This document shows, piece after piece, positions 1,147 through 58,198 of a stretch of 64,000 bases of DNA. Source of the stretch: Dictyostelium discoideum (Eukaryota); NCBI GenBank assembly GCA_000004695.1, contig CM000152.2, forward strand, positions 5,920,001-5,984,000. Direction: 5' to 3'. Within the stretch, counting starts at the first letter, position 1, and each line of letters begins with the position of its first letter. Both the position numbers and the translations under genes were made by a program. Under the pieces are notes generated by a model. It was not told the origin of the DNA, did no database searches, and was given only the letters and a program-made list of their open reading frames with translations.

Positions 1147-10200
<9,054 letters not shown>

Positions 10201-12022: not shown

Positions 12023-12393
12023 TTTTTAATTTTTTTTCTTTTTATTAAATTTTTTTTATTATTTAATTTTTTTTTTTTTTTCTTTCTTTTTTTTTTTAAA
12101 AATAAAATAAAAAAATTTTTTAATAATTAAATTAATTTAATAATTCCATGAAAGTTGAGGGGTGATCAATATTTACACACACACACCCACTTGGTAAACA
12201 GTTACTTTTTTTTTGTGTGGGTTTTAGTGGTAAAGTGTAAAATCTCATTTTTATCTTTTGGTGATGTTTTATAAATAAATTAAAAAATAAAAATAAACAC
12301 CCCAAAAGTGAACAGAAAAAAAAAAAAGAAAAAAAATAAAATTAAAATTTATTTTTATTATATTTCTATTATTAGAATAAAAACTATTTAAAA

Positions 12394-48161: not shown

Positions 48162-49797
48162 AAAAAATAATAATAATAATAATTAAGATATAGAAAAAAA
48201 AAAAAAAAAATTATCTTTTTTTTTTTTTTGTTTTTATTTCTTTTAAATATTTTTTTTTAAAAAATTATCTTTTTGTTTTTTTATTTTTTTTTTATCTAAT
48301 ATTATTTTTTAAGTATTTGAATTACATATATATAATTCATATATATAATTTTATAAAAAAAAAAAATATTAATAAATAAGTAAATAAACATTTTTATAAA
48401 TCAATTTAATATATGCATTGTTTTAAAATTTTAGACATGTTTTTCTTTTTTTTTTTTTTTTTTTTTCTTTATAATATTTATTATTTTTTTTTTTTTTTTT
48501 TAAATATTTATTTTATTTTATTTTATTTTTTTTTTCAAATTATTTTATTTTATTCTCAAACAAATAATTAAAATATATAAATAAAAGAGATGAATAAATT
48601 TAAAATAATAATTGATTTTATTAAAATTTTATTTAAAAAAGATCATTTAATTTCAATTTTTTTTATATTATTATTTATTTTAAAATTTGGTATTTTAAAT
48701 TTAATAATTTCACTGTGTTCATTTATAATTGAACTATTTTTAATCATTATAAATATTATTTTATTTTCAATAAATTCAGTATTACTATTTTTATATTATG
48801 TATTTTACTTTAATACAAATATAATATTCATAGTAATATTTGGTATACCTTTATTAATTAAATATATAATTCCAATAACAATTTCAATTTATTATTTTTA
48901 TTTTGGTTAATAATAATTCTGGAAAAAAAAAAAAAAATAAAATAAAATAAAAATAAAAAAAAATAAAATTCGATCCTAAATTAAAAAGAAAAAAGAAAGA
49001 AAAAAAAAAGAAAAAAGAAAAAAAAAAAAAAAAAAGTAATTAAAATGTAGGTTTTTAAAAATTTTAATTAAATTAAATTAAATAAAATAAAATAGAAAAA
49101 AAAAAAAAATAAATAAAAAAAAAAAAAAAGGACAAATAATATCAAGAATAATTGTGTATACTCTGGAACTAATACATGTAAAAAAAAATAATTTTTTTTA
49201 ATTTTTTAATTTTTTTTTTTTTTTTTTATTTTTTTTTTATTTTTTTTTTTTTTATTTTTTTTCAAATTTCATTTTGTTTTTTTTTTTTTTTTTTTTTACA
49301 ACAATAAATTTTTTTTTTATATTTAACTCTATATATCATATTTTTTATTTATTAGTTTTATTTCCTTCAATTTACGTTAATAAATAAGTTTTTTTATTAT
49401 TTTTTTATTATTTTTTTCATTTTTTTGGACTCCAATGTTAATACAGACACCAATTTTAGAAAAAAAAAATTAAAATTAAAAAAAAAAAAAATAAAAAAAT
49501 AAATTTCAAAGTTTTTAAAAAATCAAGTCGTCAACTAAACCACAAAATAGAAAAAAAAAAAATAGAAAAAAAAAAAAAATCCTCACAATAGTAGCAGTAG
49601 TAATAACACATTCACACAAATCAATCATACATACATACACACATACACACATACACACATACACGCACACCCTAAATAAATAAACCAAACTTTAATAACA
49701 ACAATAATAATAGTATAATACATAAAACTCAGATTCAAATTAAACATTTAATAATAACAAAAACCAATAAATAAATTATAATAATTAATAGATACCA

Positions 49798-53028: not shown

Positions 53029-53882
53029 TTTAATTAAATAAAAATAAAAATAAAAATAAAAATATTATAATTGGGAGTGCGTTAAAAATAAATGAGAGTA
53101 AGTGGGTGTTGAGTGTTTTATTTTATGTGTGAGTGAGAGTGTGTGTGTGTGTGAGTGAGGTGAGTGAGTTTATTTTTAAAAAAAGATATAAAAAACACTT
53201 GTGGGGCGGTTATGTATCTTTTTTTTTTTTTTTTGTTTGGTTTTATTTTTTTTTTTTTTTTTAGAAATTTTTATATTTAATTTTAATTTTTTTTTATTTT
53301 TTTTTTATTTTTTTATATTTTTTTTTTTTTTTAAATTTTTTTTATATTTTTTTTGATAAATCAAAAATAAGAGATTAGTGTGTGATTTTTAATGTGATTT
53401 TATGTGGGAGTTGATAATAATAATAAAAAAAATAAAAATAACTATTTAATTTTTTTTTTTTTTTTTTCTGGTTATGTATACAATATTGATGATAATAAAT
53501 TAATAAAAAAAAAAAAAAAAAAAATTCTAGTTTTATATTTTTTTTTAAAAATAAAAATTAATAAAAAAAAAAAAAAATTAATAAAAAAAAAAAGAAAAAA
53601 GAATAAAATTAATAAAAAAAAATAAAAAAAACAGGTTATTTTTAGATTCATTTTTTTTTTTTTTGTAAAATGGAAAAACTGAGTCGCCATTAATGGACAT
53701 TTTTTAATGATAAATATATATTAAAAGAAAAGGTTGTGTGAGGCAAACAAACGTTTTTTTTTTTTTTTTTTCATTTAAAATTTTAATTAAAAAAAAAAAA
53801 ATTATCATTGTAATTGGTAAATCTCAATTTAACCTCAATATAATTTATAAAGACTCTTTTTAGATTTGTAGCCCCATCAGCC

Positions 53883-53917
<35 letters not shown>

Positions 53918-55166: not shown

Positions 55167-55485
55167 TTATAAAAGTTTACAGTCACTCACACCTTCACCA
55201 GAAACATGAGCAGAGAGTAAATTATCATTTTTAAAACTACTACCAATTGATGTATTGTCGTTTTTCATTTGTTTGGATCTCTTAATAACCGACTTTTGGT
55301 TAACAGTATTATTATTACTAAAACTATTATTTGAACCAAAATTTGAAATTGAATCTATTTTTTTTTTTTTTTTTTTTTGGAAAAAATTGGATTTAAAAAA
55401 AATTAAAAAATGAAATATTAGAATTTGTAAAATAAATAATTTAAAAATTAAAATTAATAAAATAAAACTTACTAATGATTGTCAT
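55167..55485 (-). CDS. possible tiny 2-exon gene (13-nt first exon ATGACAATCATTA|gtaagt; exon 2 55354..55167) encoding a ~66-aa Ser/Asn-rich protein ending in a CaaX box (CKLL)
   Basis: ATG followed after 13 nt by a consensus GTAAGT donor. Poly-pyrimidine T21 tract + tag acceptor. The 62-codon open second exon terminates ...GEGVSDCKLL*. It is absent from the ORF track because exon 2 alone is under 60 aa. Confidence 0.3.
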
Positions 55486-55948
55486 TTTTTTTTTTTTTTT
55501 TTTTTAAATAAATAAATAATTTTTTTTTTTTATAGTAATACAATTTTTTAAATTGAAAGTTAGTAAATAAATGAATATTTTTTTTTTTGGTTTAAATATT
55601 ACTTTTTTTTTTATTTATTTTTTTTTATTTTTTTATTTTTTTATTTTTTTTTAAATTTTAATTATTTGATATTTGTTTATTTTTTTATAGAAATAAAATC
55701 TGAAATAAAAAAAAAAAAAAAAAAAAAAAAAATTATTATAATGATTTATTAGTATTAGTAGTGGTGGTGGTAGTAGTAGTAGTGGTGGGGGGTCGTGCTA
55801 AATAGTAAGGGTGGGAGGTGTGTGATGTTGTAGACATTGTGTGTCAATTCAAATTCTATCCTATGATATAGTTTAAATCTCAAATAAAGAAATCTATTAC
55901 AAAAATATTATTTTTTTTTTTTTTTTTATTTATTTAAAATTTAAATAC

Positions 55949-55982
<34 letters not shown>

Positions 55983-56760
55983 TTTTTTAATTTTCAAAAT
56001 TATCTATTTAATTATTTTATAGTATATAAATAACCATTAATATCACCAAATATTAAAACATACACACTCAAAATAATAATATTTTTAAAATATTACCCAC
56101 CCCCTTCACCCCCTCCCACACCTAAACTATTAACTTTATTGTATTAATTAAGAACTGAAAAAATCCTATGATCATCTCAGGATTTGTGATATGTATAATA
56201 TAATTTATTTGTTTAATTTTTTAATTTTAATTATTTATCATTATTAGTTTTTTTTATTTTTTTTTTTTAATATTATAAAATTTCTGGTATATGAGGTTTT
56301 ACATGATGTGGTTCATAAATGGTAAAAAAAAAGGTTAAAGATATTCCTAAATAATAAAAAAAATATTTAAACCTCTCAAAGTATCACCTTTATTTAATCA
56401 TTGCATATATTTGTATTTTGGTTTTTTTTTATAATTTTTATTTTTATTTTTTTTATTATTTTTTATTTTTTTAATATTAAAAGATGGTTGTCACAAAACT
56501 TTTTATTAAAAGGAAGGTTTTTTGATAATGATTTATTTATGTTTCTATTATTTATTTTTTTAATTTTATTTTCGCCATTTATATCTTTTATGTGTGTGGG
56601 TTGATTTATATGTGGTTTTTTTTATCTGAAAAACTATCAATAATACAAAAAAAACAAGATATTATTTTACCAAATTAGAGGGTTTAGATAGTATTATTGA
56701 TAATAGGTTTTTTATTTTTATTTAAAATCTATTTTTTTTTTTTTTTTTTTTTTTTGGTAC

Positions 56761-56800
<40 letters not shown>

Positions 56801-57757: not shown

Positions 57758-58198
57758 ATGAATAAGATAAGAAGTAATTCAATTGAATCTTCAACATCAT
57801 TATCAATATCAAATTTTATAAAATATTATTGGATTAATATAATTATATTTGTATCGATTTTATTGATATTGGGATTAAATTTAATTTCAGTGATAATGGA
57901 GACAAGGGATCATTTTGATATTACTCGATTAATAACTTTATTTGATAAAGAACAATGGCTACTAGCTTCAACAGTTTCACCATTAATTAAAACTATCAAT
58001 AATAGACAGCGAGTTTCACTATTAACAAATACTTTTATATTAGTAATCGATTTCGTTTTATTTGCTTTCTTATGTGCTTTAATTTTAAAAAGAAATTTAT
58101 TCACAAACAAATCATCAAATAATAATAATAATAATAATATTAAAAATGATCACGAGAGGGATCGTTTAATTCAACCTAAACAAACTAATAAATATTAA
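57758..58198 (+). CDS. small membrane protein (146 aa, two predicted TM segments), unknown function
   Basis: ATG-initiated ORF with hydrophobic segments WINIIIFVSILLILGLNLISVIM and FILVIDFVLFAFLCALIL. Downstream (58200-58301 and 58389-58628) there is further exon-like open sequence in another frame, separated by a canonical 87-nt intron (see findings). Confidence 0.55.
   Translation: MNKIRSNSIESSTSLSISNFIKYYWINIIIFVSILLILGLNLISVIMETRDHFDITRLITLFDKEQWLLASTVSPLIKTINNRQRVSLLTNTFILVIDFVLFAFLCALILKRNLFTNKSSNNNNNNNIKNDHERDRLIQPKQTNKY

Follow-up and report, generated by a model that had tools for sequence, protein, structure and literature searches.

The DNA considered here is a stretch of 64,000 nucleotides (nt) of the Dictyostelium discoideum genome (assembly GCA_000004695.1, contig CM000152.2, positions 5,920,001 to 5,984,000 of the forward strand), referred to below as the window. 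At 55485-55167 its minus strand carries a two-exon coding gene, the joined coding sequence (CDS) of which comprises 201 nt and encodes a protein of 66 amino acids (aa) (MTIINSISNFGSNNSFSNNNTVNQKSVIKRSKQMKNDNTSIGSSFKNDNLLSAHVSGEGVSDCKLL). The spliced product shows 100% identity over 66 aa to DDB_G0282585, a hypothetical protein of D. discoideum AX4 annotated in NCBI and UniProt. The micro-gene is real and already in the annotation, and is not a new discovery; the original prediction, made from the sequence alone, had proposed a possible micro-gene here, and the existing annotation had escaped it. Overall, we favour, with some confidence, the reading that DDB_G0282585 is a diverged offshoot of the hssA/sigN class of small developmental genes and that it specifies a disordered, hydrophilic micro-protein, probably geranylgeranylated. 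The parts of the gene from start to stop codon are:

55473-55485, minus strand: coding part of exon 1, 13 nt (ATGACAATCATTA), encoding M T I I and base 1 of codon 5
55355-55472, minus strand: intron, 118 nt, phase 1, running from GTAAGT to A21-TAG, 8.5% GC
55167-55354, minus strand: exon 2, 188 nt including the TAA stop (55169-55167), 27% GC, encoding residues 5-66
55170-55181, minus strand: CaaX box codons TGT AAA CTT TTA (C63 K64 L65 L66), the C-terminal tetrapeptide, followed by the stop

The GTAAGT donor adjoins exon 1 with no gap. Every coordinate of the original prediction, namely a 13-nt exon 1 running directly into GTAAGT, a gap of about 118 nt and a TAG acceptor, is correct on the minus strand, and the spliced CDS bears out its 62-codon frame ending in CKLL and a stop as well as its product of about 66 aa. 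The T21 polypyrimidine tract that it placed before the acceptor was a misreading, as T21 occurs on the plus strand only and the pre-mRNA has a 21-nt poly(A) run before the TAG. The GC content of exon 2 supports its status as an exon, since the 5' leader has 6% GC and the leader, intron and 3' flank range from 6 to 12%.

Dictyostelium firmibasis carries an ortholog, RB653_006452, of 63 aa, which agrees with the D. discoideum gene in its 13-nt exon 1, in where the intron lies and in ending with CKLL. The gene reads ATGACAATTATTA, followed by a GTAAGA donor, a 101-nt intron, an ATAG acceptor and an exon 2 opening ATTCAATTTC. The open reading frame (ORF) and its CaaX box, for which the original prediction looked to other dictyostelids, are thus kept in D. 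firmibasis together with the 13-nt exon, the GTAAG donor and the ATAG acceptor. Exon 1 is identical between the two species at 12 of 13 nt, the single change (ATC to ATT) being synonymous, and the interior of the intron has diverged. Over 20 kb the window and the D. firmibasis locus (L001) are colinear, and each species has a CBM49 gene on the upstream side of the gene and an RGS gene on the downstream side. A blastn block of 763 nt (55899-55137) aligns to L001 9605-10327; the interval comparison was informative with the dust filter on, the unfiltered run being swamped by A/T runs. Exon 2 of D. firmibasis contains no in-frame ATG anywhere, and Met34 of D. discoideum is Ile there. The start codon must therefore come from the 13-nt exon, and the splice is required. 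An intronless start at the internal Met34 was rejected on the same grounds.

Nei-Gojobori counts between D. discoideum and D. firmibasis gave the following proportions of synonymous (pS) and non-synonymous (pN) differences and ratios of the corresponding divergences (dN/dS):

Whole CDS: pS 0.52, pN 0.13, dN/dS 0.17
First 11 codons: pS 0.29, pN 0, dN/dS 0 (no non-synonymous changes)
Middle of the CDS: pS 0.54, pN 0.26, dN/dS 0.33
Last 26 codons: pS 0.60, pN 0.07, dN/dS 0.06

The indels between the two species are multiples of three. The CaaX codons in D. firmibasis are TGT AAA TTA TTG, so that both Leu codons differ synonymously (CTT to TTA, TTA to TTG), and in the one ortholog compared CKLL stays at the exact C-terminus despite indels elsewhere. 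These observations indicate a translated gene under purifying selection, the two ends of which appear to matter most. The segments invariant between the species are the N-terminal MTIINSISNFG and, apart from one Ser/Thr exchange, LSAHV(S/T)GEGVSD before Cys63. Apart from the annotated protein, a word-indexed search of 5.8 billion proteins matched the D. firmibasis ortholog and nothing else. An exhaustive HMMER search across 1.84 billion representatives returned that ortholog too, its single other match being a spurious repeat protein (P0003). A pattern scan of metagenomes gave 600 matches, none of which was confirmed.

A 13-nt first exon together with an MTI..SIS N-terminus is the hallmark of the hssA/2C/7E/sigN small-gene family (PMC2257962, PMC6198379), for which Vicente et al. 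(2008) described 96 sigN-related genes encoding proteins under 120 aa (PMC2257962). The original prediction had the gene structure right, but its match to this hallmark went unremarked. The length and phase of exon 1 agree with those of 89 of the 96 sigN-family genes (PMC2257962), and the architecture as a whole is that of the family (exon 1 of 13 nt, intron of 118 nt, exon 2 of 188 nt). Similarly, the product is well below 120 aa, and its relatives are confined to Dictyostelium among the 5.8 billion and 1.84 billion proteins searched. The start of the protein follows the family pattern MT[IL][IL]xS[IVL]SS[IML][GS], with MTIINSISNFG in the target against MTILSTISSIG, MTILGLISSIS and MTLIGSVSSMS. 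For comparison we used the four members that protein database searches yielded, all of which match PF05710 ('Coiled'), namely P0004 (DDB_G0273025) from D. discoideum, P0006 and P0007 from D. purpureum and P0005 from D. dimigraforme; the PF05710 bit scores of P0004-P0006 are 35-70. Three adjacent D. purpureum PF05710 genes (locus L002) show the same structure, with an exon 1 of ATGACAATATTAG, ATGACATTAATTG or ATGACAATATTAA, donors of GTAAA or GTATAG and an exon 2 opening GTTCA or GTACAATTTCG; introns are 63-81 nt in the two of these genes with resolved models. The N-termini compare as follows:

Target, DDB_G0282585: MTIINSISNFGSNNSFSNNN
D. purpureum: MTILSTISSIGNVRSISKSSN
D. purpureum: MTLIGSVSSMSNLSFIYKTN
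D. discoideum P0004: MTILGLISSISNVKSISKSNN

The N-terminal pairing sets MTILSTISSIGN (D. purpureum) against MTIINSISNFGS (target). Over the first 36 nt of the CDS, the target is identical to the D. purpureum family genes at 19-24 positions, and the family genes are identical among themselves at 25-27. The pattern ATGACNATNNTNNGTAAG occurs in the window at the target only, with 0.1 expected. The resemblance extends further to the single short phase-1 intron, an exon 2 of about 200 nt, the MTI(I/L)xSISxxG start, a Ser/Asn-rich first half, the restriction to dictyostelids and perhaps G/C-rich upstream boxes, which are candidates for the GBF type. It ends past about 12-20 residues. In contrast to the family, the target is single-copy and lies outside any tandem cluster, lacks the Gly/Cys/Val-rich hydrophobic segment, and ends in a canonical CaaL box where family proteins end in ..GCN or ..CGCN. 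It is also without a PF05710 match and missing from the 96-gene list. The target is therefore not assignable as a PF05710 member, while it is built like that class. Taken together, the shared gene structure and N-terminus suggest that it probably descends from the hssA/sigN class, its exon 2 having diverged past profile recognition.

The D. purpureum locus is also of interest with regard to annotation. Three hssA/2C/7E genes lie within 2.2 kb at L002 4163-6345 (GL871327.1), and the middle one, on the minus strand, is annotated without its 13-nt exon, so that the called product begins inside exon 2. The omitted exon is ATGACAATATTAA, at about 5031-5043; it is situated 69 nt upstream and has GTATAG as its donor. 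Micro-exons of the hssA/2C/7E type are evidently overlooked by some annotations.

The protein is hydrophilic (grand average of hydropathy -0.56; Ser plus Asn 38%), and its hydropathy reaches at most 0.81 over 9 residues and 0.19 over 19, with no signal-peptide-like or transmembrane (TM) segment by this measure. AlphaFold2 predicted no secondary structure (mean predicted local distance difference test score, pLDDT, 59; predicted template modelling score, pTM, 0.12). A hydrophilic protein that lacks a signal peptide and TM segment and is modelled as unfolded should stay cytosolic and intrinsically disordered. Geranylgeranyltransferase I (GGTase-I) recognizes a Cys at position -4, a permissive a1, an aliphatic a2 and Leu or Phe as X. 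CKLL satisfies this tetrapeptide rule, and the C-terminus should be accessible in the cytosol, judging from the hydropathy and the predicted disorder. The original prediction's description of a geranylgeranylation-type CaaX box holds for the motif, which is conserved in D. firmibasis; lipidation itself would follow from the rule. Its rejection of a G-gamma coiled coil also stands: G-gamma identity is practically excluded, with no Pfam match at E<=10 and no helix predicted by AlphaFold2.

Known substrates in Dictyostelium provide a frame for the box. Cys66 of G-gamma was found by mass spectrometry to be geranylgeranylated and methylated, and the RasG box CTLL placed on GFP gives geranylgeranyl-dependent behaviour (PMC6219514). 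The target shares with the CaaL substrates G-gamma, RasG, Rap1 and Rac1A (PMC6219514) the Cys at -4, the aliphatic a2 and Leu as X, and a1 is the sole difference between CTLL of RasG and CKLL. It is hydrophilic and predicted to be cytosolic, as they are, and its length of 66 aa is near that of G-gamma, in which residue 66 is the prenylated Cys. Unlike them, it has neither a GTPase or G-gamma fold nor a polybasic or palmitoyl second signal. On this basis we consider geranylgeranylation of Cys63 an even or slightly better than even proposition.

The following course of events would be consistent with these features. The exon 2 body would have diverged from an ancestor of the hssA/2C/7E/sigN class, and the 66-aa product would stay in the cytosol because it has no signal peptide or membrane segment. 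GGTase-I would recognize CKLL and geranylgeranylate Cys63, after which KLL would be removed and the new C-terminus methylated. The resulting 63-residue peptide would be anchored in a membrane on its cytosolic side, with LSAHV(S/T)GEGVSD beside the membrane and the N-terminal MTIINSISNFG as the likely interaction surfaces. The lipid anchor may thus take the place of the hydrophobic Gly/Val segment of the family.

A number of observations weigh against this reading, in its gene, family and lipid components. We scanned both strands for an ATG, at most 40 nt, GTAAGT, 50-250 nt and a TAG giving at least 60 spliced codons. The window contains four matches at three loci, and the two loci besides the target resemble ordinary genes. 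Shuffling in 300-nt blocks gave a mean of 0.49 matches per window and at least one match in 65 of 200 shuffles, so the splice and ORF signals by themselves are not beyond chance. The verdict on the gene therefore rests on comparative evidence, that is, the identical annotated protein and the syntenic, constrained ortholog. This conservation rests on a single species pair. Further, the MAKER annotation of D. firmibasis drew on transcripts as well as on the D. discoideum proteome (PMC11193728), so that the D. firmibasis model is no independent proof of splicing; the sequence conservation itself is independent of the annotation. The DDB_G0282585 identifier is absent from the literature full texts searched and from the supplements of PMC6198379 and PMC12821622, which gave no expression or proteomic record of the gene.

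With regard to the family, the protein gave no match to PF05710 even at E<=10, and the whole-protein similarity that marks the family (to SigN1 or the PF05710 profile) was not found. An hhalign comparison with the family aligned only residues 1-12 (E 0.0024), at a low probability of 12%. Our own family hidden Markov model, which is thin (five sequences), scored the target at 8.0 bits, a value reached by 9 of 2000 shuffles. The complete published table of 96 genes holds no chromosome-3 entry with 66 aa and a 118-nt intron, so that the target is unlisted. The family body, which is rich in Ser, Gly and Cys with a hydrophobic Gly/Val segment (predicted TM at about 54-76) and a Cys tail, is not seen either: P0006 has 16 Gly and 3 Cys and peaks at a 19-residue hydropathy of 1.48, whereas the target has 4 Gly and 1 Cys and peaks at 0.19. 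Finally, Cys63 follows acidic and not basic residues (..VSD), and the protein shows no evident second membrane signal.

These points bear differently on the alternatives. The gene may be real and CKLL not a working prenylation signal, the conserved C-terminal 16 residues then serving as a short linear motif for binding, or the Cys for a disulfide, palmitoylation or metal binding. Constraint does span the whole of the last 26 residues and not the box alone, hssA-family proteins often have a Cys near the C-terminus in non-CaaX tails (..GCN, ..CGCN, ..GCY), and our literature searches gave no report of a CKLL box. A rough composition estimate predicts a few chance CxxL ends in a proteome of 13,000 proteins. 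Yet CKLL fits the GGTase-I rules and departs from the working CTLL of RasG at the permissive a1 only, the protein would be open to cytosolic prenyltransferases, and the box has kept its exact terminal position through the indels; we consider an unused box unlikely, though it deserves serious attention. Slightly more doubtful is an independent origin, by which DDB_G0282585 would be a lineage-restricted orphan and its 13-nt exon and MTI start coincidental. The negative or marginal profile tests, the absence from the 96-gene list and a body far from the family in composition and hydropathy are what such an orphan would present. Coincidence would then have to account jointly for the exon 1 length, the intron phase, the exon 1 sequence (9-10 of 13 nt), the first 12 or so residues, the protein size and the candidate GBF-like boxes upstream, and for ATGACNATNNTNNGTAAG being seen in the window solely at the target.

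The protein could also be the precursor of an exported, a-factor-like geranylgeranylated lipopeptide, prenylated, trimmed at its N-terminus and ABC-exported in development. Fungal pheromones of the a-factor type carry a farnesyl group (X = A, M or S), tend to be shorter and undergo N-terminal trimming. The target resembles their precursors in being small, unstructured and without a signal peptide, with a conserved CaaX end and C-terminal segment and a variable middle. It differs from them in that X = Leu predicts a geranylgeranyl group, whereas the known lipopeptide pheromones are farnesylated, and in that its N-terminal 11 residues are invariant, conserved as strongly as the C-terminus, which is unexpected for a discarded pro-segment. 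Nor is there any evidence of processing or export, and we regard this alternative as very improbable. A transcript that functions as RNA, with an incidental ORF, has a precedent in a frame-shifted hssA construct that still suppressed a mutant (PMC6198379), and the 5' leader is conserved between the species. Against this, a dN/dS of 0.17 (0.06 at the C-terminus) at a pS of about 0.5 points to selection on amino acids, the indels respect the reading frame and there is no Rfam match at E<=1, which leaves the RNA explanation hardly credible. Finally, a chance ORF with chance splice signals and no gene could appeal to the similar configurations in about a third of the block-shuffled windows and to the lack of an expression record in the texts searched. 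It is confronted with a syntenic ortholog that conserves the frame, start, splice sites and stop under purifying selection, with a GC content that steps up between the intron (8.5%) and exon 2 (27%) and with a conserved promoter block; judging by the orthology, it appears effectively refuted.

The hssA/sigN-like architecture and the conserved CaaL box of DDB_G0282585 seem to be unreported in the literature that we found. If the favoured reading holds, the hssA/sigN class may be broader and more diverged than catalogued, as this gene lies outside both its list and its Pfam model. The class has resisted genetics because it is redundant (PMC2257962, PMC8554618), and strains that lack thirteen sigN genes, or six other members, show no phenotype. 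Should the box be used, DDB_G0282585 would give this class a relative that is lipid-anchored and present in a single copy, and the single copy could be useful. Should the box be unused, it would be one more uncharacterised lineage-restricted small protein. The lipopeptide alternative, if true, would mean an a-factor-like system in a social amoeba, arising from a micro-gene class whose function has stayed obscure despite multi-gene knockouts.

Two further features lie upstream of the coding region:

55707-55743, minus strand: putative core promoter, TATAATAAT and then T26, located some 220 nt before the ATG
55752-55899, minus strand: conserved upstream block with the CA/C-rich runs ACACACA, CACACACC, CCCCCCACCAC and CCACCACCAC, candidate GBF-type boxes

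Core promoters of Dictyostelium typically combine a TATA element with oligo-dT, and TATAATAAT with its T26 run may represent such a combination; the ...CACTAATACTAATAAATCATTATAATAAT and the T-run are conserved in D. firmibasis. In the upstream block, the core at about 55899-55815 (some 85 nt) is the best-conserved part of the 763-nt alignment, with about 76 of 83 aligned columns identical by manual count. The GBF element (T/G)G(T/G)G(T/G)G(T/G) has five matches at 55784-55844, although the motif is degenerate and has 78 matches in the window. GBF-like boxes have also been reported for sigN promoters (PMC2257962). Developmental regulation of DDB_G0282585 of the GBF type is thus a tentative proposal, which we hold at somewhat less than even.

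In the whole window the 78 matches to the GBF heptamer compare with 26.7 expected from dinucleotide shuffles, and they are mostly clustered, the clusters including (TG)n runs at 1049-1073, 12175-12189, 49637-49659 and 53140-53152. The presumed 5' leader (55486-55700, minus strand, about 215 nt, 6% GC) contains the motifs GATTTTATTTCT.TAAAAAAATAAA, TAATATTTAAACCAAAA and TTCATTTATTTACT.ACTAA, which are conserved in D. firmibasis; its length and conservation are unusual for Dictyostelium.

The surroundings of the gene had been described in the original prediction as free of other ORFs from 53 to 57.7 kb. This is correct as far as convincing ORFs are concerned, but the stretch carries several conserved non-coding islands. 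Upstream of the target promoter, a block of about 400 nt (56368-56785, minus strand; L001 8881-9305) is 76-78% identical between the species and contains no convincing ORF. Between 52800 and 57800, Rfam gave no match at E<=1. Two islands on the minus strand stand amid diverged AT-rich spacer, one at 53862-53908 (L001 11704-11750; 98% identical; AAGTGGCTGATGGGGCTA.AAATCT) and the other at 53804-53846 (L001 11824-11866; 91% identical; ATTGAGGT.AA.TTGAGATTTA.CAATTACAATGAT). They could be regulatory elements, or else a small RNA that the annotation lacks.

Spacer DNA separates the CBM49 gene from the target by about 3.35 kb in D. discoideum and by about 1.55 kb in D. firmibasis. On the plus strand, 57758-58198 holds an ATG-initiated ORF of 146 aa with a hydrophobic stretch (MNKIRSNSIESS...IIIFVSILLILGLNLISVI...), for which Pfam gave a sub-threshold match only and tblastx no counterpart in the corresponding interval of D. 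firmibasis; an insertion or a gene specific to D. discoideum may account for it. Further, about 0.9 kb upstream of the ATG of the RGS gene, an island at 53651-53705 (minus strand; L001 11999-12054) is 93% identical between the species. It begins ATGTCCATTAATGG(C/A)GACTC (MSINGDS...), shows two synonymous-looking changes, and may represent a further micro-exon, a small ORF or an exon that belongs to the RGS gene and lies upstream of the rest.

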